Shown: positions 97 to 9,233 of the stretch, one piece after another
Layout of the letters: every line of letters begins with the position of its first letter
Numbering within the stretch: position 1 is the stretch's first letter
NCBI RefSeq assembly: GCF_003334255.1
Contig: NZ_QOWU01000090.1
Source: Escherichia coli
GTDB lineage: Bacteria; Pseudomonadota; Gammaproteobacteria; Enterobacterales; Enterobacteriaceae
Strand: one strand, 5' to 3'
Length of the DNA stretch: 9,233 nucleotides
Notes under the pieces: generated by a model
What the model was told of the DNA's origin: nothing
Seen by the model: only the letters and a program-made list of their open reading frames with translations
Database searches by the model: none
Position numbers and translations under genes: made by a program

Positions 97-404
97 AACG
101 TCATTTTATGCAGGGAATGTGTAGTTCTACACAGATTCTATGCAGTATCGGTATAGTCCCTTTTTATTCTAACTTATTGAAATATATAAAGAATCTGCAA
201 AGCCTCTTTTCAGGGAGCTATGCAGGGTGTTAGTCGTCCCTCTCCAGACACTACATATAGTGCTATATACAGGGCTATATAACGATATATAGATGTTTGG
301 TCACATGGTGTAACTATCAAGAAACTTAATAGTTTCCTATGTGAAAGTTATTTCTGAGGGTGGGTAAGTGCTCAGGAGATTTCATGAGGATAATTCTTAT
401 CCGA

Positions 405-445
405 ATCATCACGTAGAACACGCTTAAGCACAGATACAAAAAAGC
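405..445 (+). repeat. Diverged member of the intergenic repeat family (shares ACGTAGnnCACGCTTAA and ACAGATAC..AAAAA sub-motifs with the 6874-6937 element)
   Basis: 409-428 cacgtagaacacgcttaagc matches 6921-6939 acgtagctcacgcttaaag at 15/17; 430-445 cacagatacaaaaaag resembles aacagata..caaaaa in the repeats at 6874 and 9113. Permuted order, so the relationship is weaker than between the two main copies. Confidence 0.3.
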
Positions 446-486
446 CCCCATGAAGGAGGCTATGAATCTATGCAGGTGATGAGAAA

Positions 487-1029
487 TTATTCAGCTTTAA
501 TACGCTGTACAGTTGACTTGGCAACGTTGAATTGAGCGGCTACTTTAGCGATTGAACTACCAGCAGCAAGAGCAGCTTTAATACCTTCTCTGTCAACCGC
601 TTTACCGTTACCCCTTCCAACTACACGACCAGCAGCTTTAGCAGCTTCATAACCTTCTCTTTGACGCTCAAGCATCATTTTACGTTCAGCTTCAGCCACT
701 GCTGAAAAGATTGTGAGAATCATCTTAGACGTGGGGTTATCGTCACCAGTTATCAGACCTTCTTTGTGAAAGTGAACCTTGATACCTTTCTGTGAAAGTT
801 TATCCACCAGCGTTAATACATCCACGGTAGAGCGCCCTAAACGTGACAGGTCGTGTACATGGATAGTGTCACCTTCACGAACATAATCGAGCATAGCCTT
901 TAGTTGTGGACGGTCTGTATTCTTCCCAGATGCTTTATCAGTAAATACCTTATCCAGTACGACCCCTTCAAGTTGACGGTCTGTAATCTGCTGGATTGAT
1001 GAAACTCGAACATAACCAATGTTAGCCAT
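487..1029 (-). CDS. Small serine recombinase (resolvase / DNA invertase family)
   Basis: Translation MANIGYVRVSS.Q...Q... gives the catalytic-serine N-terminus typical of Hin/Gin/Tn3-type serine recombinases (Ser at position 10 when started at the second Met), DLSRLGRS motif, and a C-terminal GR..GR..-HTH (SIAKVAAQFNVAKSTVQRI). The ORF track extends to 1053 (8 more residues, MSKANEYI); I prefer the internal ATG at 1027-1029 because it places the catalytic Ser at the canonical position, but the SD is weak for both starts. Confidence 0.85.
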   Translation of the reverse strand: MANIGYVRVSSIQQITDRQLEGVVLDKVFTDKASGKNTDRPQLKAMLDYVREGDTIHVHDLSRLGRSTVDVLTLVDKLSQKGIKVHFHKEGLITGDDNPTSKMILTIFSAVAEAERKMMLERQREGYEAAKAAGRVVGRGNGKAVDREGIKAALAAGSSIAKVAAQFNVAKSTVQRIKAE

Positions 1030-1363
1030 AATATACTCATTTGCCTTACTCATTTGATGGATTGAGTATAACGTACCGATAAAGTGTTTTACAAGGCTAA
1101 TCGGTATGGTTTTTACAGGGGGTTAGCTATACCTTTTTAGTATGCTATATCGGTATGCCTAAGAGATGGAGATGCCTTTACAGCAACTCACATAGAAAGT
1201 CAATAGATATTTGGCTTTTTTGCAAAGGGGGTCACATAGCTGGTGTGACGGGTACTTAGCAGGTATAGACCTGTGATAGATATTTTCGAAGATTCGGGGA
1301 AGATGAGATTCAAAGAGGGCTAGTCATTTTTTATAAAAATTTTCAGACTCTGAAAAGTTACTG

Positions 1364-1468
1364 TACAGATTTTATACAGATATCTTTAAAGTATCTGTAA
1401 AGACTTTTAAGATAAGAGATAGATATCCCAGAAAGGATATCCGTTTAGAAAACCTGTTAAGTATCTCT
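1364..1468. repeat. Cluster of dyad-symmetric elements in the recombinase / methyltransferase divergent intergenic region (candidate operators or recombinase binding sites)
   Basis: TACAGAT direct repeat (1364-1370, 1375-1381); 8-bp inverted arms TACAGATA (1375-1382) / TATCTGTA (1392-1399) with 9-bp spacer; GATATCC (1422-1428) / GGATATC (1435-1441) with 6-bp spacer; AGAGATA (1415-1421) / TATCTCT (1462-1468). Each alone could be chance; the clustering is the evidence. Confidence 0.4.
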
Positions 1469-1521
1469 TAAAAGAGAGTAAACCTTGTCAATAGTGATTG
1501 CAATAAAAATTTTTATTTCTT

Positions 1522-2184
1522 ATGTCAATTGAGCATATTTTAATCGGGAAACATCATGGGGGTTCTGATTACTGGAGAACTCCATTTCTTATATTCCGCA
1601 ATTTGCACCGTGAGTTTAGTTTCAGTCTGGATGGTGCTGCAACTGAGCATGACACGCTGTTACCACGATTCACCAATGATATTCACAATCAGTCATGGGA
1701 TGGTGAACGGGTGTTCTGTAACCCACCATACAGCGACACTAAAACATTCCTCCTAAAAGCCGCTGAAGCGGATTTAGCGGTATTCCTGATACCGTACCGA
1801 CCCCACACCACATACTGGCTTAAGCACCTCTTCACAAACCCGCTTTGCCATGAAATCCGTATTCTTCATCGTGCAGTTAAATACCTTCCACCAGCAGGGC
1901 ATAACGGGCTTGCTATTAGGTCACCGTTTGCAAGTGCAATTGTCATCTTTAAAACTGAGCCACGCAGACATGAAATTACGCAGATGATTTGCTGTGCTGA
2001 TACATTGCTACCGTTAACCATCATTAACAGAGGAGGCTTAAGAGGAAGACCCACCATTTACCCACCTGAGACGCTCGACAGCTTCATAAAGCTATACAGG
2101 CAAGGAAAACCCATTAAGTGCATTGCAGATGCTCTCAGAATGCCTCTGAGCACGTCATACAGGATTGCGCAAAGGTTGAGCTAA
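1522..2184 (+). CDS. Phage-type DNA N6-adenine methyltransferase (Dam-like, NPPY family) with a C-terminal resolvase-type helix-turn-helix
   Basis: N-terminal ~150 aa carry DYWRTP...FSLDGAATEH...RFT...WDGERVFCNPPYS...PFASAIVIF, the motif order of the phage Dam N6-adenine methyltransferase family (catalytic NPPY). The C-terminal ~55 aa, NRGGLRGRPTIYPPETLDSFIKLYRQGKPIKCIADALRMPLSTSYRIAQR, follow the GRP...HTH pattern of Hin/resolvase DNA-binding domains. No convincing SD precedes the ATG at 1522, so the start is uncertain. Confidence 0.8.
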   Translation: MSIEHILIGKHHGGSDYWRTPFLIFRNLHREFSFSLDGAATEHDTLLPRFTNDIHNQSWDGERVFCNPPYSDTKTFLLKAAEADLAVFLIPYRPHTTYWLKHLFTNPLCHEIRILHRAVKYLPPAGHNGLAIRSPFASAIVIFKTEPRRHEITQMICCADTLLPLTIINRGGLRGRPTIYPPETLDSFIKLYRQGKPIKCIADALRMPLSTSYRIAQRLS

Positions 2185-2550
2185 AATTCTCATAAATATG
2201 GCCATTTACAAGACAGGTGATTTAGATATTAAGAAGTATCCCTGTGAACAATAAATGACCAATCAGTAATTATTCTGTGAAATAATTGTTGCAATCTATA
2301 ATCACACATGATATAGTTTCATAGTGGGCTGATAAAAAAGTTCATGTCTTGAAGTGGTAACACTTGGGGAGGTGTCAGATGATTGACGTCAACAAGACCT
2401 CTCATTCAGGGTAATTACCTCAGCGTTTTAATCATCGTACTGTTTCAGGCATGGACTTCTTTATCAGTCCATCAATCCCCCAGATATTTTAATCACACAG
2501 GCTAATCGGTTTTATCCGGTTGGCCTTTTCACGTATGAGGTAATTTATGA

Positions 2551-3489
2551 ATGTCTAAATATAACCCAAATCAGTTTTATAAATTTGATGTGCGAATCTC
2601 TCAGCTTTCAGAAGAAATTAACGCAGCAGCAAGATTAATTTATATGGTCATGGTTCATAGCTGTGATTTCTATGAAGAGAAGTACAAAGCATATTCACCA
2701 AGTATTGACCATCTAGCTTATATGGCTGGTGTTTCAAAGAGAACGGCAATCAGAGCTATTGAGACACTTGAGAAACACGGTTTAATTCAGGTGCAAAAGA
2801 ATCAGGGTCGTCAAAGCACTTATCGTGTATTCACACTGGATGATAAGCCGGAATTACTTGTAAGACCTACATCACAGGAAGTTGCAGCCTCAGTAAGACA
2901 AAATGACACCACTACCAGTGACAAAATGTCATCAGTACCAGTGACAAAATGTCATGGGGGTAGTGACAAAATGTCACCCGTGTTAGATAAGTTATTAGAT
3001 AAAACATTAGATAATAATATTATAGATAAGAGTAAAGATACTGAACTTGATGTTGGTATCAATGAAGATGATTTTCTTTCTTTGGATGAATTAAATGATT
3101 TTCTCTCTATGAATGAATCTGACCTTGATAGTGAAGCTACTAAAGAGACCTCTAAAACATCTGACTTAGAGGAAGATAAAATCTCTGATGTGAATGAAGT
3201 TAGTGACCAGCAAGATACACCTTGCCGCCTCGAATCAACTGATGATGAATTACCGGATGTTGACCTTGATGATGAAGAAGACCCTGAAGAGGAATTGAAA
3301 CGTGAACAGCGTAAAGCAGAAATTAAAGAAAGATTCAGAAAGGCAAAGCTAAAGAACAGGATTGATGAACTTGATGACTTTGATGATAGTGACGATGATT
3401 TTACTTTTACACCAAAAAAGAAAACTCACACCGAGCCAAAGAAAGAAAAAGTTAAAGTCAGACGTGTTTATGCTGGAGGAATGTTTTAA
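2551..3489 (+). CDS. Replication initiator, lambda O-like (N-terminal winged-helix DNA-binding region, iterons inside the gene, highly acidic C-terminal tail)
   Basis: SD GAGG at 2537-2540. N-terminal 100 aa (…IDHLAYMAGVSKRTAIRAIETLEKHGLIQV…STYRV) look like a winged-helix replication-initiator domain. The middle of the gene holds an iteron array plus an AT-rich tract. The C-terminus is low-complexity acidic (DDELPDVDLDDEEDPEE…DDFDDSDDD). The functional call rests on architecture and was not confirmed by a homology search. Confidence 0.65.
   Translation: MSKYNPNQFYKFDVRISQLSEEINAAARLIYMVMVHSCDFYEEKYKAYSPSIDHLAYMAGVSKRTAIRAIETLEKHGLIQVQKNQGRQSTYRVFTLDDKPELLVRPTSQEVAASVRQNDTTTSDKMSSVPVTKCHGGSDKMSPVLDKLLDKTLDNNIIDKSKDTELDVGINEDDFLSLDELNDFLSMNESDLDSEATKETSKTSDLEEDKISDVNEVSDQQDTPCRLESTDDELPDVDLDDEEDPEEELKREQRKAEIKERFRKAKLKNRIDELDDFDDSDDDFTFTPKKKTHTEPKKEKVKVRRVYAGGMF
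2894..2976. repeat. Iteron array: four copies of a ~15-bp dyad element (consensus AGTGACAAAATGTCA) at 22-23 bp spacing, inside the rep coding sequence
   Basis: Exact copies at 2917-2931, 2940-2954 and 2962-2976; a degenerate copy (11/15) at 2894-2908. Arms TGACA / TGTCA are inverted repeats. The period is not a multiple of 3, so the encoded peptide (SDKMSSVPVTKCHGGSDKMSPV) is not itself repeated; conservation is at the DNA level. Confidence 0.65.
2981..3060. other. AT-rich tract with phased TAGATAA repeats immediately after the iterons (candidate DNA-unwinding element of an embedded origin)
   Basis: TAGATAA at 2984, 2996, 3008 and 3023 (about 12-bp phase) within a very AT-rich stretch (gttagataagttattagataaaacattagataataatattatagataag). 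Position relative to the iterons mirrors the lambda origin layout. Confidence 0.45.
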
Positions 3490-3779
3490 TGAAAGAATAT
3501 AACGGTGAAAAACGATACAAAGATTATCTATTAAGGCGCTACAGCATTTCTCGTGAAGGTCATCTTCTGAAAGATACTCATGGGGAGGTTTACCGGATTC
3601 GACCGAAGAAGGAAGGAAAGAATTATTTCTTTTTTGATGGTGTGACAGATTTAAAGATTGACGCTTTGAGGTTTGCAGTGATGTATCATTTTGATGTCTG
3701 GGATTCAGTCCACCAGCTACGATTAAAAGACGGTGACCCCGGTAATCTGAAGGCCACCAATATCATCACAAAACGTTAG
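3489..3779 (+). CDS. Hypothetical 96-aa protein with weak NUMOD4 / HNH-like resemblance
   Basis: Start ATG overlaps the rep stop (TAATG at 3487-3491), suggesting translational coupling. YSISREGHLLKDTHGEVYRI resembles the NUMOD4 motif and VHQLRLKDGDPGNLKATNI loosely resembles the HNH_3 core, but the canonical catalytic His/Asn positions are not all present. The coding call is reasonable; the functional call is weak. Confidence 0.5.
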   Translation: MKEYNGEKRYKDYLLRRYSISREGHLLKDTHGEVYRIRPKKEGKNYFFFDGVTDLKIDALRFAVMYHFDVWDSVHQLRLKDGDPGNLKATNIITKR

Positions 3780-3961
3780 TTTGTTTTACCATCATCAATC
3801 GTAATTGTGATTTCATATTTGAAAAGCTTAATGCTGAAATTGAATCGTGTACTTTTGGCGATAATCATTTTTAAAAGCTGATACACCAGAAGCACCAGAA
3901 ACACAAAGCAACCTAAGCTTGCGAATCTGTGAGATTCAGCAATTGTTTCAAGAAAGCCCAT
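3776..3961 (-). CDS. Small hydrophobic protein (61 aa, one predicted transmembrane helix), convergent with and overlapping the 3' end of the upstream + strand gene
   Basis: On the minus strand, AAGGGGA is followed 4 nt later by the ATG (3959-3961). Hydrophobic segment LGCFVFLVLLVYQLLKMII. An upstream CCCTT / AAGGG hairpin (3968-3985) could sequester the SD. A promoter-like element lies upstream (see 4012-4040). Function unknown. Confidence 0.4.
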   Translation of the reverse strand: MGFLETIAESHRFASLGCFVFLVLLVYQLLKMIIAKSTRFNFSIKLFKYEITITIDDGKTN

Positions 3962-4011
3962 TAATTCCCCTTATTTATCAAAGGGAATGACCTGTATCAG
4001 CCCCTATAACC

Positions 4012-4040
4012 ATAATATCATGTAAATGAGATGTTGACAA
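4012..4040 (-). promoter_or_regulatory. Candidate sigma70-type promoter for the small minus-strand ORF
   Basis: Minus-strand reading: TTGTCA (complement of 4035-4040), 17-bp spacer, TATTAT (complement of 4012-4017). The -35 overlaps the -35 of the divergent + strand promoter. Match quality is moderate; not unlikely by chance in AT-rich DNA. Confidence 0.35.
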
Positions 4041-4062
4041 TATGTTAAATAAATGTTAAGAT
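4034..4062 (+). promoter_or_regulatory. Candidate sigma70-type promoter for the 4099-5374 small-gene cassette
   Basis: TTGACA (4034-4039), 17-bp spacer, TAAGAT (4057-4062; 4/6 to TATAAT), about 37 bp upstream of the ATG at 4099. ATGTT recurs at 4031, 4042 and 4053 (~11-bp phase) across the element. Confidence 0.35.
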
Positions 4063-4098
4063 TGTAGTATGAGTAAGAGATTTAAGGAGATTTTTACA

Positions 4099-4389
4099 AT
4101 GACTCACACAGTTACGCGCCTTTTGCCAGAGGCATTTGAACGACTGGCAGCAATCAAAGCCAAATATCCCGATATGAAGCACACAGCGCTTGTTGCAGAG
4201 GTTTTAAAAGAGCCGGTAGACTTGACCCCTTTCGATAACGTTAAGGGCGTTGCAGAGGGTTCTAAGGCCATCAGAATCACAACGGGCCAACTGGAACTAC
4301 TCAAAGCACAGTCCGCAGTAGCAGGTTGCTCAATGATTCAGGTCTTAAGCGCAAAGGTTCATCAATTAGCGGATAAGCTGGGGGTTTAA
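4099..4389 (+). CDS. Hypothetical small DNA-binding protein; two consecutive ribbon-helix-helix-like segments
   Basis: SD AAGGAG at 4083-4088, ATG at 4099 (the ORF track's 4069 start lacks an SD). Residues TVTRLLPEAFERLAAIKAKYP…ALVAEVL and AIRITTGQLELLKAQSAVAGCSMIQVLSAKV each fit a beta-strand / helix / turn / helix (Arc/CopG-like) pattern. Assigned by eye only. Confidence 0.6.
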   Translation: MTHTVTRLLPEAFERLAAIKAKYPDMKHTALVAEVLKEPVDLTPFDNVKGVAEGSKAIRITTGQLELLKAQSAVAGCSMIQVLSAKVHQLADKLGV

Positions 4390-4814
4390 TGCTATGTACA
4401 TTTGATTATCATGCGTTTTATCGACATAGAGGTCATCTTGTCCGTGAGAATAACGGAACATGGAAAGATTTAACTCGTAATGCTGAACCCTTCACACACC
4501 AGCAATTAAAATCCCGCTTCTCCAGATGGAAGAATGCACCAGCAGATACTGGTGATTTTGAGATTATCCATACCTTCGATTATGCCTCAGAAGATGACCT
4601 TCACGATGCAATTAAGCTGATTGAAGACTTCAATACCTCAGAAAATGTGGATGGTGACAAATATAAATCCCGTGGTAACCGCTATAACCGTGATGATATC
4701 ACTCAGGCCATAAATGCTGGTCAATCTCAGCGATACATTACAGAAAAATATGGTATTTCACGGAGACAGTATTTCTACGTTAAATCATTGATTAATAAAG
4801 ACAATTCAAAATAA
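4389..4814 (+). CDS. Hypothetical 141-aa protein with a C-terminal HTH-like segment
   Basis: Start overlaps the upstream stop (TAATG at 4387-4391), suggesting translational coupling. C-terminus DDITQAINAGQSQRYITEKYGISRRQYFYV resembles an HTH. No recognisable catalytic motif. Confidence 0.6.
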   Translation: MLCTFDYHAFYRHRGHLVRENNGTWKDLTRNAEPFTHQQLKSRFSRWKNAPADTGDFEIIHTFDYASEDDLHDAIKLIEDFNTSENVDGDKYKSRGNRYNRDDITQAINAGQSQRYITEKYGISRRQYFYVKSLINKDNSK

Positions 4815-4820
4815 CCATCT

Positions 4821-4920
4821 CAGTAACGGTAGAATGCACTTTACAGGCAGAGTTGCACCTTAATTTGATAAATTACCTTACCAGCCAGTGCAACTCCCTC
4901 TGTAACCCGCATGGTTACTG
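4821..4920. repeat. About 100-bp interrupted inverted repeat (three collinear helices of 7, 6 and 9 bp around a 28-nt AT-rich centre) in the intergenic region
   Basis: CAGTAAC (4821-4827) pairs with GTTACTG (4914-4920); TTACAG (4841-4846) with CTGTAA (4900-4905); GAGTTGCAC (4851-4859) with GTGCAACTC (4888-4896). The central loop is cttaatttgataaattaccttaccagcca. Confidence 0.45.
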
Positions 4921-4973
4921 GCCTCAGAATGGCTATTTTAAGAGGTCTGAGATGTGTTTTAGAGGAATTTAAA

Positions 4974-5297
4974 ATGAGCAATTACGAATTACAGATTTTC
5001 GTTGATAACGACACCGCTATGATGATTCAGGCTTTCAGTGATTCCGGTGTATCAATTGATTTTGACAGGCTGTTAAAGCTGATGGCTGATAATGCAGAAA
5101 ACATCTCTGACTTTATTCAGTCGGTGGAGTTTAACGAGCCTCGAATGATGCTACCAATTACCGACTCAAACATGAAAAGATTGGTTATCGAGCAAACGAA
5201 CAAACACAGTATTTCCCCAGAGCAATTTTTGAAAGGTGCTGTGACAATCCTGCACAGCGATAATATTCTGGTGACGGATTCTATGAGGGTTCACTAA
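4974..5297 (+). CDS. Hypothetical 107-aa protein
   Basis: SD-like AGAGGAA about 8 nt upstream of the ATG at 4974; the ORF track's longer start at 4911 lies inside the inverted-repeat element and lacks an SD. No recognisable motifs and no Cys residues. Confidence 0.6.
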   Translation: MSNYELQIFVDNDTAMMIQAFSDSGVSIDFDRLLKLMADNAENISDFIQSVEFNEPRMMLPITDSNMKRLVIEQTNKHSISPEQFLKGAVTILHSDNILVTDSMRVH

Positions 5298-5374
5298 TGG
5301 GATTGATAATTGCTTGGACAGCTTTAGGTTTATTTGTTGGTTGCTGGGTGGGCAACACAGTAAATAAGAATTGA
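5297..5374 (+). CDS. Candidate 25-aa hydrophobic peptide (MGLIIAWTALGLFVGCWVGNTVNKN), coupled to the upstream gene
   Basis: ATG overlaps the stop of the 107-aa gene (TAATG at 5295-5299). The ORF is a single hydrophobic helix-length segment with a polar tail. It is below the ORF-track size cutoff and could be fortuitous. Confidence 0.3.
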   Translation: MGLIIAWTALGLFVGCWVGNTVNKN

Positions 5375-5398
5375 TGTTACCAATCTGTTAAAAAGCTG

Positions 5399-5427
5399 TT
5401 GACAAATAACCTTAAGCATGGCATAAT
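5399..5427 (+). promoter_or_regulatory. Near-consensus sigma70 promoter (TTGACA, 17-bp spacer, CATAAT)
   Basis: TTGACA at 5399-5404, exactly 17 bp of spacer, CATAAT at 5422-5427. Predicted start near 5434-5436. A GGATAG / CTATCC hairpin sits at about +5 to +22 (5439-5456). Confidence 0.55.
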
Positions 5428-5622
5428 TGTATATATGAGGATAGTCTTCTATCCGAAGTCTATAGGAAGAGCAATTTTTCCTAAAATCATATTTTCAATA
5501 ATCCGATGGATGGATATTCTGAGTTGGAAAGGTGCAATGCTTTTCGTCATGGCCTTTCAGTTTAGTCTGAGAGGTCATCTCAAAAAGTGCTTAATCATTC
5601 ATTATTGAACCCTTACAGCTTT

Positions 5623-5652
5623 GCCCTAACTCATGATTAGGGCGTTTTCTTT
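5623..5652 (+). terminator. Intrinsic terminator
   Basis: GCCCTAA (5623-5629) / TTAGGGC (5637-5643) 7-bp stem with 7-nt loop, followed by GTTTTCTTT. Confidence 0.55.
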
Positions 5653-5723
5653 AAGAGTTTTGAAACAGAGCTTTTAAAGAAAGTTTTCCTGAAACTTCGT
5701 TAACGTTATAAGCAAACCTTCAA

Positions 5724-5756
5724 AGCCCTTCACAGATTATGTTTAGGGCTTTTCTT
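5724..5756 (+). terminator. Second, related terminator-like hairpin
   Basis: AGCCCT (5724-5729) / AGGGCT (5745-5750), extendable to 8 bp, with a 15-nt loop and TTTCTT tail. Sequence is related to the first terminator (…gccct…tagggc.ttttctt.a..agag). Confidence 0.4.
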
Positions 5757-5853
5757 AATAGAGCATCTTTAATAAATCGTTAAGTCATCTTCTAAGTGTA
5801 TTGGCGTTGAAGGTGCTCTATTAAGAAATAACCACACTTAGAGGAAAAAAATA

Positions 5854-6564
5854 ATGACAAACGATATTTACATTAATGGCAAAGTGATTGATAGCTTCGG
5901 TGACTGGTCACCACAGACTGAACATCCAGCTATCGCTATTCAGCGCAAAGAGCACGATGCGAGAATTGCACTTGAGCAATCGCTAAAGATGACACCAAAG
6001 GAAATTACCTTTGTGGCTCCTGAACCTCAAGAGATGCCCGATATTGGCAAAACTGAAGCATTATTTAATCTTGAGCGCGAATATTACCCACAGTTAAAAG
6101 AACAGCGCCTTAGATTAGATGACGCTTACAGCAAAGTTACCTTGATGCAATCAGCTATTGAGCCGTCAGAATTTGAGATTCAGGATGAATTGTCACAGAA
6201 ACCATTTGTCTATTACCAATACGAAGACAATGATGGTTTTGGTACTTTTCCAGAAAACATCACAGGCGTGATTAGTAGTCTTCCTGATGGATATCGAATT
6301 GTGAAGATGGTTAAAGCTTCAAGAGGTGCTGGTCAGTTTATTTACATGACCAATAAGAGCGATGAAGAACTCCGTGAAATTGCCAGACAGAACATCTTGG
6401 CATCACGTAACAAGCAACTTGAAAATGTTAAGTTGTATCTCTCAAGAGAGCTTCAGGCTATGAAAGAGCTTGTTAGTGAATATGAGTCGCAGAAGAAGAT
6501 TGCTATGCAAGCCGATATTGAGCAGCTTACGAAGATTTCTCAGAAGTATAGCAAAGCGATTTAA
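5854..6564 (+). CDS. Hypothetical 236-aa protein with a coiled-coil-like C-terminus
   Basis: SD GAGGAA at 5839-5844 with good spacing to the ATG at 5854. C-terminal third is rich in heptad-like E/K/Q/L. No recognisable catalytic motif. Confidence 0.7.
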   Translation: MTNDIYINGKVIDSFGDWSPQTEHPAIAIQRKEHDARIALEQSLKMTPKEITFVAPEPQEMPDIGKTEALFNLEREYYPQLKEQRLRLDDAYSKVTLMQSAIEPSEFEIQDELSQKPFVYYQYEDNDGFGTFPENITGVISSLPDGYRIVKMVKASRGAGQFIYMTNKSDEELREIARQNILASRNKQLENVKLYLSRELQAMKELVSEYESQKKIAMQADIEQLTKISQKYSKAI

Positions 6565-6580
6565 TTTAAGTGAGGTGAGA

Positions 6581-6796
6581 ATGATTGATTTGCAACAGCG
6601 TTATGAAACTATTAAGTCGGCTTGTGAAAACTTAAAGTTACAAACCAAGCCAGCCTTAAGAATTAAAACCAAACATCAAATTATCACCTCACACAAACCA
6701 AAAACACGCAAGATTCCAAAGTGGTGTATTGACCGTATTCCTTCTGATGCTCAAATCATAGGTGAAACGGAATTACATTATCTTGTCCGACATTAA
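6581..6796 (+). CDS. Hypothetical small basic protein (71 aa)
   Basis: SD GAGGTGAG at 6572-6579, ATG at 6581. The same frame stays open upstream and overlaps the last ~95 nt of the 236-aa gene in the +1 frame (ORF track 6470-6796). Confidence 0.45.
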   Translation: MIDLQQRYETIKSACENLKLQTKPALRIKTKHQIITSHKPKTRKIPKWCIDRIPSDAQIIGETELHYLVRH

Positions 6797-6823
6797 AAAA
6801 GAATTGGTTGGGTAAAAATCAAC

Positions 6824-6866
6824 GGGAGAGATTATCGAGTGATATCGGTAGTTTCTCCCTTTTTTG
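6824..6866 (+). terminator. Intrinsic terminator
   Basis: GGGAGA (6824-6829) / TCTCCC (6854-6859) stem enclosing a structured loop, followed by a 6-T run (6860-6865). Confidence 0.65.
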
Positions 6867-6873
6867 TATGTGT

Positions 6874-6915
6874 GCTACGTGAAATCTTCTGAACAGATAT
6901 ACCCACCAAAAATTA
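6874..6915 (+). repeat. 42-bp intergenic direct repeat, copy 1 (upstream of the 688-aa gene)
   Basis: gctacgtgaaatcttctgaacagatatacccaccaaaaatta; 35/42 identical (ungapped) to 9113-9154, with the first 26 nt matching 24/26. Confidence 0.6.
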
Positions 6916-6956
6916 TTTTTTACGTAGCTCACGCTTAAAGAGGTGAAAAAATATGA

Positions 6957-9023
6957 ATGGCACAATTTAAAGTTGATGATTTTCTGATTGAGCTAGGTTT
7001 TAACTCTCAGAGGGTTTTAAAAGGTCTGGAAAAAGCCGAGAAACAAACGATGCAGGTAGCATCACGAATTGAGAAGCGATTGAATAAAGCTTTTAAAGTT
7101 AACCCTACGCCTTTAAATGATTCTCTCAAGGTCATGGAAAGAAATGTCGATAAAACTGTTTCCAAGATTGAGCAGCGTCTTAAAAACACTAAAGCGTTTA
7201 AGATTAAAACGGAAATTGAGGATACTTTAAAGCCACTTAGACAACCGAGACAGCCACGAATTAGCGGAAGCAGAGCAATTACAGCAGCGCATAGCGTGAA
7301 TATGAGCAAGCTTCGTGACTTTAATCCTATGCTTGAGAAGTATTTTAAAAGCCAGTATTACAGCTTAAGCAGTAAATCCAAGACACTTGGAAACGAAGCT
7401 TTTAATCGTGAGTTAGCAAAATTAAATCAATCTCTTCGTGAAACACTTTCTAAGTTTAACAAGACCACCAGCAAAAATAATCACAGTGAAAATGCTTCGA
7501 ATGGTCTGGATGTATTAGCTACGAGTGCAATCAAAGCAGGTACAGCCATTTATAGTTTTCAGACAGCCTTAGAAGCTTACAGGCGGATTATGGAGGTTGG
7601 TCTGAAAAAAGAAGCATCACAACGAGCGGCACAATTCGTTTTAGGTGATGAAGGTGCTAAACGAGCTACAGAATTTGTTAAGAATCTTGCTGATAGTAGT
7701 GGTGTAGACCAGATTGAAACATTAAGCAGTTTTGCTAAGTTTTCCGCTGGTGCTGGTGATATGAATGCAGACCAGAAAGAATCCTTATTTTCTAATGTGA
7801 TTGGTACATCCAGATTAATGGGGCTAAGCACCGATGAAATTAACGGGATTTTAAAAGCTTTCGAGCAGATGGCATCTAAAGGAAAGATTCAGGCTGAAGA
7901 GCTACGCGGTCAATTAGGTGACAGAATGGCAGGTGCTTTTCAGTTATTTGCCAGAAGTCTTGGGATGACTACGGAAGAATTAGACAAGGCTATGAAAGAC
8001 GGTAAGGTTCTTTCTAAAGATGTTCTCCCTAAAGTATCCGCTGAAATGGGAAAGATGATTGATAAAGCGGGAGGATGGGAAAAGATTATTAACTCTACTC
8101 AGACGCAGTTAGGCCGCTTAAGTAATTCATGGAATAATAATTTGGCCTTAATGTTCGATGGTTCACAGGAAGGTTTAACAGACTTTACAAGGTCACTGAC
8201 TAATTTACTTAATTCACTGGGTGGTCAATCTAAAAATCTTGGTGAACATTTTGGCGACTTGATGAAAAGCATGTCAAACGGTATTGATGATTTAACCACG
8301 ATTAGCTACCGAGTGCAGGGATTCTTTGACAGAGTGACCCTTGCTTACAGAGAATTAAATGACACTCAAAAAGCTGTAGCTGATGGTATCGCAAATGGCC
8401 TGTTAAGTGCATTAAAGGGACTTGCTGGTATTGTCGCTGTAAGGTCTGGTATTGGTGCTGTAGGTGGTATCTGGAACTTAATTAGGGCTATTTCCACGCT
8501 TGGGAATGTAGCAAATACAGCAGCAGGAAGAATTAATTCACGTTCTGGTGGTGTTGAAAGTGGAAAAAGTAGGCTATCTGTAGCTGATGCAATTACCAGA
8601 GTAATGATTGTCGGTATGACAACTGATGTGATTAATGCCATTGTCAAACCGTTCTATGAACGTCAGATGAGTAAGTCAGATAATCCGATTGATAAAGTTG
8701 TAAGGTCAAAGGTGGAACCCACAGACCAGGCATTAACTGGTGACATGAACTCTTTAGCCGCTGTTTTATGGGCTATGGTTCATGGCAAATCAAAAGATGT
8801 TCCACAGTTTTCACCTGAAGCATTAAATAATCTAAAAGGTCGAGTGGAAACATTCACACAAGATTTAAAGGTTATCAAGCCGTCAGTAAATATTCAGCCT
8901 CAGACAATCAATATCACAACTCAGACGGTACTTGATGGAAAGGTTATTGATGAAAGAACCACATCGCATATTAATCGTATGCAGGAAGATACCTTGATTA
9001 GCTCAGCTTACCCAGAGGAATAA
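6957..9023 (+). CDS. Tail tape-measure-like protein (688 aa)
   Basis: SD AGAGGTG at 6938-6944. Coiled-coil-like N-terminal region. Central segment …MASKGKIQAEELRGQLGDRMAGAFQLFARSLGMTTEELDKAMKDGKVLSKDVLPKVSAEM… (DNA about 7800-8050) matches the conserved pattern of the tape-measure N-terminal domain as I recall it. Followed by a Gly/Ala-rich hydrophobic stretch (GLLSALKGLAGIVAVRSGIGAVGGIWNLI). The coding call is strong; the product call is from motif memory, not a search. Confidence 0.75.
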   Translation: MAQFKVDDFLIELGFNSQRVLKGLEKAEKQTMQVASRIEKRLNKAFKVNPTPLNDSLKVMERNVDKTVSKIEQRLKNTKAFKIKTEIEDTLKPLRQPRQPRISGSRAITAAHSVNMSKLRDFNPMLEKYFKSQYYSLSSKSKTLGNEAFNRELAKLNQSLRETLSKFNKTTSKNNHSENASNGLDVLATSAIKAGTAIYSFQTALEAYRRIMEVGLKKEASQRAAQFVLGDEGAKRATEFVKNLADSSGVDQIETLSSFAKFSAGAGDMNADQKESLFSNVIGTSRLMGLSTDEINGILKAFEQMASKGKIQAEELRGQLGDRMAGAFQLFARSLGMTTEELDKAMKDGKVLSKDVLPKVSAEMGKMIDKAGGWEKIINSTQTQLGRLSNSWNNNLALMFDGSQEGLTDFTRSLTNLLNSLGGQSKNLGEHFGDLMKSMSNGIDDLTTISYRVQGFFDRVTLAYRELNDTQKAVADGIANGLLSALKGLAGIVAVRSGIGAVGGIWNLIRAISTLGNVANTAAGRINSRSGGVESGKSRLSVADAITRVMIVGMTTDVINAIVKPFYERQMSKSDNPIDKVVRSKVEPTDQALTGDMNSLAAVLWAMVHGKSKDVPQFSPEALNNLKGRVETFTQDLKVIKPSVNIQPQTINITTQTVLDGKVIDERTTSHINRMQEDTLISSAYPEE

Positions 9024-9112
9024 ACAATGTTAGAGCTACTAATATTTATTGCCACACATGGCAATCTATTAATCTTTATCTAGTATGACGATTCAACTAT
9101 GAATAGTCGAAT

Positions 9113-9154
9113 GCTACGTGATTTCTTCTGAACAGATACCAACATCAAAAATTA
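9113..9154 (+). repeat. 42-bp intergenic direct repeat, copy 2 (downstream of the 688-aa gene)
   Basis: gctacgtgatttcttctgaacagataccaacatcaaaaatta; see copy 1 at 6874-6915. Confidence 0.6.
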
Positions 9155-9233
9155 GATGAACCGCCCCGGGTTTCCTGGAGAGTGTTTTATCTGTGAACTC
9201 AGGCTGCCAGATCATTGTTTCCGATGGAAGCAT

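Follow-up and report, generated by a model that had tools for sequence, protein, structure and literature searches.

A fixed-length bipartite palindrome in front of tail-gene homologues of an Escherichia coli island and in front of phage P1 cre

Why should two similar intergenic sequences bracket a phage-like tape-measure gene in a bacterial chromosome? We addressed this question for a 9,233-nt stretch of Escherichia coli DNA (contig NZ_QOWU01000090.1), hereafter called the window, most of which belongs to an integrative island of ~11 kb (window 123–9156; 12001–23400 in the relative L001). The tape-measure gene (6957–9023, plus strand) lies between the two repeats, copies 1 and 2, and is a highly divergent cassette among islands. 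An earlier note on this window had described the repeats as ~42 bp long, with a rearranged third member at 405–445. The pair is real: positions 6873–6915 and 9112–9154 are 84% identical over 43 nt. The top ungapped direct repeat in the window, at an offset of 2239, scored 25.5, compared with 14.1 ± 1.1 and a maximum of 17 in 40 dinucleotide-type shuffles of the window, and a degenerate 26-nt core pattern, itself built from the two copies, matched twice in the window and not once in 200 shuffles. The length of ~42 bp was nevertheless too short. Intact relatives show a unit of ~70 nt (L001 18703–18772 and 20936–21005), composed of a 55-nt palindrome and a tail, TCACGCTTAA; the inverted repeat inside the unit had escaped notice.

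The palindrome is bipartite. Two 15-bp arms, GCTACGTGAAWTCTG and CAGAWTTCACGTAGC, are separated by a spacer of exactly 25 bp and follow, in the islands, the consensus GCTACGTGAAATCT[T/G] ... [T/C]AGATTTCACGTAGC. The palindrome is followed by the tail, as a short leader, and by the Shine-Dalgarno sequence belonging to the next gene. Every island unit keeps the tail, which stands on the gene-proximal side in all cases. The right arm begins, at its inner end, with TANNNT in all island variants. Two types of spacer, A and B, occur in the islands between identical arms; only type A spacers contain TGAACA-18 nt-TAGATT/TATTTT, a weak promoter-like sequence that agrees with the consensus at 8 of 12 positions.

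In the window, copy 1 is complete. Its palindrome occupies 6874–6928 of the plus strand (left arm GCTACGTGAAATCTT at 6874–6888, spacer at 6889–6913, right arm TATTTTTTACGTAGC at 6914–6928) and, with its tail, the copy covers 6874–6940. The tail and leader (6929–6956, plus strand) read TCACGCTTAA and the Shine-Dalgarno sequence AAGAGGTG, followed by the tape-measure ATG at 6957, so that the palindrome ends 28 nt 5' of the start codon. A strong intrinsic terminator, with a 15-pair stem and a T-run, is located directly 5' of copy 1 (6824–6866, plus strand). Copy 2 (9113–9156, plus strand) is truncated: its left arm (9113–9127), its spacer (9128–9152), and 4 nt of its right arm (TAGA) remain, the rest of the arm and the tail having been removed by the end of an insertion sequence (IS) of the IS629 type that starts at 9157. 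In intact islands this second unit ends 29 nt 5' of a hub-like gene annotated as "baseplate". The third member exists, at a position other than the one first given: it spans 336–428 of the plus strand, with a left arm at 336–350 (CCTATGTGAAAGTTA), a 27-nt spacer (351–377), a right arm in two parts (378–385 and 413–417) split by a 27-nt insertion (386–412), and a tail at 418–428 (AACACGCTTAAG). The neighboring string cacagatacaaaaaa (427–444) is, at 17 of 18 bases, the reverse complement of the terminator-tail context 5' of copy 1 (6859–6876). All three copies stand at gene boundaries, as had been noticed.

The same architecture is found in phage P1. In its genome (NC_005856), positions 118–172 read GCTACGTAAAATCTG-25 nt-CAGATTTCGCGTAGC, to be compared with GCTACGTGAAATCTT-25 nt-TAGATTTCACGTAGC in the island; the arms differ by one or two substitutions and the spacer measures 25 nt in both. 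The P1 unit sits between loxP and cra/cre and overlaps the annotated promoter P3cre (pR1), whose -10 hexamer (124–129) falls within the left arm. This hexamer, TAAAAT, owes its sequence to a G-to-A change that is absent from most units. Leader and Shine-Dalgarno sequence are also alike, P1 having ...GCACTTAGC...CAGAGGTGAAAAATG, the P1-like locus L088 GCACGCTTACTTAGCC...AGAGGTG, and the window TCACGCTTAAAGAGGTGAAAAAATATG. Judged by arms, spacing, leader, and position immediately 5' of a gene, the island unit is homologous to the module upstream of P1 cre, with the difference that the P1 module precedes a recombinase gene and the island modules precede tail genes. The cre regulatory region, in which pR1 and P3cre are said to be one promoter, reportedly goes back to Sternberg et al. 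1986 and is given in this way in the annotation of X03453 and NC_005856. The palindrome itself is unannotated in the P1 record, which is otherwise exhaustive and detailed. No description of the element came up in searches of the literature for its sequence or its topic, outside which the P1 genome paper and the 1986 cre paper fell. A recent discovery pipeline for the sites of Cre-type recombinases considered only 8-bp spacers and therefore excluded the unit by design.

Conservation within P1 was followed in 73 P1 loci (within L218–L297) whose Cre is 99–100% identical and that were not selected on arm sequence. Eight of the 25 spacer columns are variable, versus 2 of ~84 columns in the arms, the leader, and the proximal upstream region. 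The spacer is a local hotspot of diversity among P1 isolates and the arms are invariant. A scan based on Cre homology and aimed at a sample unbiased for the arms returned nearly P1 alone; the loci L298–L320, from a second scan, were outside the detailed analysis.

Further copies, and conservation in relatives, were indeed found beyond the window: in intact islands, in P1-like phages, and in metagenome contigs. Degenerate pattern scans revealed identical arms in P1-like phages. The unit of L094 and L095 has the c1/coi immunity genes and a lox-like or rox-like site on one side and a Cre-like gene on the other; that of L088 and phage JK004 is flanked by loxP and a gene encoding a 353-aa cargo protein. 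The distance to lox-type sites is 35–80 bp in P1, L094, and L095. We then pooled the earlier viral matches with a metagenome scan for the pattern GCTACGTGA-N29-47-TCACGTAGC, which allows spans of 47 to 65 nt and selects for exact outer arms. Of the 147 matches, which came from viral and metagenome contigs, 97 measure exactly 55 nt from end to end, 15 measure 56 nt, and 7 measure 54 nt. The other span lengths are scattered, come mostly from GC-rich contigs, and look like chance matches. In the 61 distinct 55-nt units, the spacers are essentially unrelated except for a central C-rich motif. With its fixed length of 55 bp and its free interior, the unit offers a handy signature for finding further copies.

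To characterize the gene context, we took units from 34 independent spacer lineages and clustered all open reading frames (ORFs) located up to 3 kb to either side of them. Just two families recurred, both of tyrosine recombinases: Cre-like enzymes, in 7 lineages, and small Xer-like proteins, ~250 aa long, in 8. Together they account for ~15 of the 34. No transposase recurred within this distance. In both families the start of the recombinase gene is always on the side of the unit, 22–36 nt away; at five loci where it lies ~290 nt from the unit, the start codon is overlapped by another unit, which is half degenerate. Loci of the L129 type contain a 235-nt non-coding segment, bracketed by two units, beside the recombinase gene. 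In one marine gammaproteobacterial lineage (L199, L214, L151, and L172), two units bracket the chromosomal dif site. A gene for a Cre-like recombinase of 424–438 aa is adjacent. In L199 (1536–2728), dif is found at 1786–1813; in L151 a filamentous prophage encoding Zot, and in L172 an IS21-type element, are inserted between the units at dif. Units also occupy many unrelated intergenic sites, some of them without a recombinase gene nearby.

Inverted repeats of this kind might act as DNA or as RNA. The arms are able to form a hairpin (-17 to -29 kcal/mol, with z = -2.9 to -5.2), as is any inverted repeat. If they paired in a 5' untranslated or intercistronic RNA, the resulting hairpin could control processing, stability, or translation; a location just 5' of the ribosome-binding site recalls phage RNase III sites, and a few arm differences, in copy 1, are compatible with G.U pairs. 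The 61 units do not behave in this way. Each side follows the inner arm consensus GAAWTCTG independently, and what is conserved is the sequence of the arms rather than their pairing. At arm position 11/45, an A.A mismatch is the commonest state (26 of 61 units), with genotype counts near independence; positions 12–15 are unpaired in 20–40% of the units, with no excess of G.U over A.C. Pairing in the flanks outside the arms, which the search left unconstrained, is about as frequent as expected under independence. Neither the inner arms nor the flanks showed covariation. A constant loop length would not be expected of a hairpin either, and in P1, where the annotated -10 hexamer is in the left arm, transcription would start within the spacer, giving a transcript without the 5' arm. 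No unit in the window, in P1 (L096), or in L095 was overlapped by an Rfam match at E<=1. A selected RNA hairpin is accordingly very unlikely. Conserved arms, free spacers, strictly fixed spacing, and the lack of covariation together favor a pair of protein-binding sites in duplex DNA.

Comparison of islands showed that units come and go as entities. In L008, precisely the 55 nt of the copy 1 palindrome are missing, and a remnant of the tail is left. In L322, neither palindrome nor tail is present 5' of the tape-measure gene and the terminator runs directly into the Shine-Dalgarno sequence; its unit 2, spacer included, is 98.6% identical over 69 nt to that of L001, the tape-measure proteins being 42% identical and the hub genes 72% identical at the DNA level. 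L321 has no unit 2 and no intergenic region whatever between the tape-measure and hub genes. Unit 1 of L007, the tape-measure unit, contains the reverse complement of window positions 349–421, the interior of unit 3. Between L001 and L322, DNA similarity ends ~4 nt 5' of the position of unit 1 and restarts ~10 nt 5' of unit 2. Homology between the window and its relatives likewise breaks exactly after the left arm of unit 3, where a variable cassette (351–1205) begins. In the window this cassette carries a gene for a small serine recombinase of the DNA-invertase type (487–1053, minus strand); in L001 the same slot is occupied by a different recombinase gene, on the plus strand, and in L002 it contains no gene. 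From presence and absence, chimera, and breakpoints, we regard the units as separate junction modules open to exchange, with the tape-measure gene as a divergent cassette in between. The earlier proposal that this gene is an exchangeable module is thus supported in the mosaic sense, not in the sense of a crossover site of a known type.

Our best reading, which we hold tentatively, is that of an operator pair whose bound protein clamps a weak promoter. It derives from the layout of terminator, unit, and ribosome-binding site, from the homology with P1, from the conservation of TANNNT, and from the fixed geometry. Each repeat would be a cis-acting DNA module of ~70 nt running into the ribosome-binding site of the next gene, and its two arms would most likely be two binding sites for one protein. 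This putative protein, common to many Gammaproteobacteria and encoded outside the island, would clamp an interval that holds or adjoins a weak promoter, for which TGAACA-18 nt-TAGATT/TATTTT is the candidate in the island. From the -10-like TANNNT with which the right arm begins on its inner side, a transcription start is predicted in the outer right arm. As the module stands directly behind terminators, the tape-measure and hub genes would share one mode of control while remaining separate transcription units, and unit 3 would likewise control whichever cassette comes after it. What the analysis shows is that the module exists, what its geometry and pattern of conservation are, that pairing does not covary, where the module stands relative to genes, and that it is homologous to the P1 cre control region; protein binding, promoter activity, and co-regulation are what we infer. 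The earlier idea of repeated regulatory sites is consistent with the succession of terminator, unit, 28 or 29 nt, and ATG and with the homology to the P1 cre promoter region; its qualification as phage-specific does not fit the distribution of the units. Nor are the ribbon-helix-helix and helix-turn-helix proteins of the island, named at the time as candidate binders, likely to bind them, given that identical arms are found where these proteins are absent, in P1-like phages, in the marine chromosomal dif regions, and in contigs of 62–66% G+C.

Several observations weigh against the operator pair. A scan for the sigma70 consensus (at least 9 of 12 positions) detected no promoter in or near unit 1 or 2, and the -35-like hexamer differs between the two spacer types. 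No known transcription-factor motif was recognized in the arms, and no small DNA-binding protein recurs within ±3 kb of the units in the 34 lineages. The module is dispensable for the possession of these genes, L008 and L322 having a tape-measure gene without an upstream palindrome and L321 lacking unit 2. Some units lie between convergent chromosomal genes (L099, L114, and L126), where no promoter is needed; the units at these sites are upstream of no gene. Lastly, the conservation of the outer arms in the metagenome sample is circular, those arms having been the basis of selection.

Other readings were weighed against this one. The unit might be a miniature mobile or gene-converted palindromic element, loosely comparable to a miniature inverted-repeat transposable element (MITE) or to REP sequences, with the 15-nt arms as terminal inverted repeats for a transposase or recombinase, a spread of copies from locus to locus and island to island, and any regulation incidental. 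The clean presence and absence at the arm ends (exactly 55 nt in L008, unit 1 of L322, unit 2 of L321), which partly support the earlier suggestion of a short mobile repeat, speak for it, as do the near identity of unit 2 between islands with very different tape-measure proteins, the chimera with inverted unit-3 features in L007, and the many unrelated intergenic sites occupied. We nevertheless consider it unlikely. Filled and empty sites in L008, L321, and L322 show no target-site duplication, no transposase partner recurs nearby, and each element carries only one to three copies. Moreover, unlike those of copy-and-paste families, the spacers are unrelated across contexts and the length is still exactly 55, and within the P1 population the arms stay conserved in place.

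The unit might also be an architectural or insulating accessory site of recombination modules, whose bound protein would mark off or shield a locus such as lox or dif together with its recombinase gene, and which the island would have borrowed to delimit its cassettes. That the two tyrosine-recombinase families are the sole recurrent neighbors agrees with this, and so do the short distances to lox-type sites in P1, L094, and L095, the bracketing of dif and its integrants in the marine lineage, the unit pairs of L129-type loci, and the coincidence of the tape-measure cassette breakpoints with unit positions. Set against these are the lack of a known recombination site beside island units 1 and 2 and the silence of the literature searched on any such function for this sequence; furthermore, to our knowledge, Cre/loxP requires no accessory site. 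We judge this reading quite unlikely. Least credible, to the point of being hardly tenable, is a crossover site at which a site-specific recombinase (the small serine recombinase of the island, its large serine integrase, or a Cre-type enzyme) excises or exchanges the tape-measure gene. Direct repeats around a divergent cassette and a DNA-invertase-type gene beside unit 3 are in its favor, and the size range of the attP sites of large serine recombinases includes 55 bp. A 25-nt unconserved spacer is, however, incompatible with tyrosine-recombinase cores, in which two inverted binding elements of 11–15 bp surround an overlap region of 6–8 bp, and the unit has none of the inner palindromy of serine-recombinase sites. 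Identical arms accompany recombinases with differing cognate sites (loxP, the lox-like site of L094, and the rox-like site of L095), separate 13-8-13 or rox-like sites are found beside the units in P1, L094, and L095, dif itself lies between the units in L199, and some units have no recombinase gene nearby. Sites of serine invertases (hix/gix/cix; 26 bp with the core AAACC-NN-GGTTT) had no convincing match in the window.

A bolder version of the operator reading is possible, if doubtful. The 55-bp module would be the site of a factor, present throughout the Gammaproteobacteria, that controls or delimits dimer-resolution and Cre/Xer loci, and the island would have co-opted it for decoy tail genes directed against Felix O1-like phages. 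This version builds on the presence of the unit 5' of cre in P1, around dif in the marine bacteria, and 5' of the small Xer-like genes. Were it true, the regulation of the best-known site-specific recombinase would have a conserved input that has been overlooked. More generally, if the arms bind a protein, a strongly conserved and unannotated control element stands directly 5' of P1 cre and of many Cre- and Xer-like genes, and the regulation or insulation of these recombinases in their native hosts becomes testable. For the island, the operator pair would explain how a chromosomal element coordinates the expression of homologues of lytic-phage tape-measure and baseplate-hub genes, and how tail-gene alleles swap between conserved junction modules.

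Likenesses to known systems are partial. Like the operator pairs that flank promoters in the late-gene control of phages and satellites (the P2/P4 late promoters with their conserved dyad, or repressor operators on both sides of a core promoter), the unit is a dyad repeated at a fixed distance in front of several transcription units; it differs in that its half-sites are 40–45 bp apart around a free spacer of fixed length, that it has no TGT-N12-ACA motif, and that it is common to unrelated mobile elements and chromosomes. With REP/BIME, ERIC/IRU, and the Correia elements of Neisseria, it shares the form of a short intergenic palindrome with conserved ends, the presence/absence polymorphism, and possible roles as promoter, processing, or protein-binding site. 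It departs from them in its very low copy number, its unrelated interiors of fixed length, the absence of target-site duplications, and its strong tie to the 5' ends of recombinase genes. The resemblance to the recombinational enhancer of Hin, Gin, and Cin, with its two Fis sites at a critical spacing, is one of geometry only, spacing and not intervening sequence being conserved: the arms misfit the Fis consensus, their centers are 40 bp apart instead of 48 bp, and the unit does not lie within an invertase gene. The arm core GTGAAAT/ATTTCAC may resemble the box A heptamers bound by ParB in P1 parS; of the loci analyzed, none contained parS. On present comparisons, the unit is best classed as an interspersed palindromic cis-element or operator, unusual in its fixed 55-bp geometry and in its association with recombinase genes.

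Several more specific identities were tried and rejected. The commonest P1 spacer reads TGGCAG-N5-GTGCT, which prompted a test for sigma54 promoters; GG-N10-GC occurs in ~10 of 55 oriented units, in differing registers, compared with a chance expectation of ~16% per orientation. Sigma32-like and sigma-E-like readings of an arm with the central C-run were matches by eye only, without the key -11 A. The six annotated late promoters of P1, which depend on Lpa and carry the 9-bp -22 box AAGTGACTT, are unlike the arms. Mimicry of helper-phage promoters was dismissed after a blastn search with the unit gave 0 matches in 50,697 phage records, and no arm-like sites were seen near the tape-measure and hub genes of phages SUSP2 or phiSUSP1. 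An invertible spacer was discarded as well: the P1 and L088 spacers agree, by hand count, at 10 of 25 positions when one is inverted and at 6 of 25 in direct orientation, a difference that is not significant, and close relatives carry no flipped spacers. Finally, a Cra-like small protein as binder was abandoned, no conserved ORF being present 5' of the small Xer-like genes and the ORF of the marine loci looking spurious.

The island that carries the units is present in 144 of 5,426 complete E. coli genomes and is chromosomal every time. In the window it is bounded by IS remnants: an IS421 end (1–~99) and, at 9157–9233 on the plus strand, the terminal sequence of an IS3-family element of the IS629 type, which starts with TGAACCGCCCCGGG and cuts off copy 2 and the island. 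The intact relative L001 is inserted between yciI and tonB, and L002 in a gene with a DUF72 domain that is annotated as split in the record. Both share one gene order: on the left the variable cassette, then genes for a Dam-like methylase and for a replication initiator that has iterons inside it, small ORFs, genes of 236 aa and 72 aa, the tape-measure gene, the 256-aa "baseplate" (hub-like) gene, and, on the opposite strand, a large serine recombinase gene. The island tape measure is collinear from end to end with those of Felix O1-like myoviruses at ~29% identity, and the hub-like protein is ~70% identical to the product of the gene directly 3' of the tape-measure gene in SUSP2 and phiSUSP1. 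The two genes abut in these phages; in the island ~170 nt, including the repeat, separate them. The island has homologues of tail genes of lytic phages (Felix O1-like, Ounavirinae), and genes for capsid and terminase are absent. A phage satellite and a defense island interfering with tail assembly are both possible identities; no description of it was found in the literature searched. In the window copy, the truncating IS421 and IS629-type ends have left neither the hub gene nor the large serine recombinase gene, and with both missing this copy is probably no longer able to excise.

A second small palindromic module, GAGGATAGTCTTCTATCCGAAGTC, maps at 5437–5460 (plus strand) and contains the 6-bp inverted repeat GGATAG/CTATCC. 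The same motif takes the slot of unit 1 5' of the tape-measure gene in L321 (1460–1486); a variant of it forms the 27-nt insertion (386–412) in the right arm of unit 3 and is found inverted in the left arm of unit 1 in L007. It resembles an operator, or else a hairpin at a 5' end, that has been shuffled among regulatory slots. The module lies just 3' of a near-consensus sigma70 promoter with a TG (TTGACA-17-CATAAT, 5399–5427). The leader of ~420 nt that separates this promoter from the 236-aa gene (5399–5853) contains two or three terminator-like hairpins (5622–5650, ~5726–5757, and 5751–5828), an arrangement that points to a non-coding RNA or to antitermination as a control of the tail-gene region.

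Three further features of the island are worth recording. The Dam-like N6-adenine methyltransferase (1522–2184) matches the methylase families over only about the first 150 of its 220 residues; its C-terminal extension of ~70 aa, unusual in the family, has by eye the look of a helix-turn-helix. In the replication-initiator gene, the iterons differ wholly between the window (AGTGACAAAATGTCA, 2897–2981) and L001 (ACCAGAATTTGGTTAC, 14714–14782), and the difference goes together with a stretch of the gene that lacks homology (window 2554–3053) and looks like a swapped origin-specificity module. Near the left end of the island (108–480), the heptamer TATGCAG occurs four times, at about 108, 156, 221, and 469; these heptamers could be binding sites for a recombinase or a directionality factor near the attachment site.

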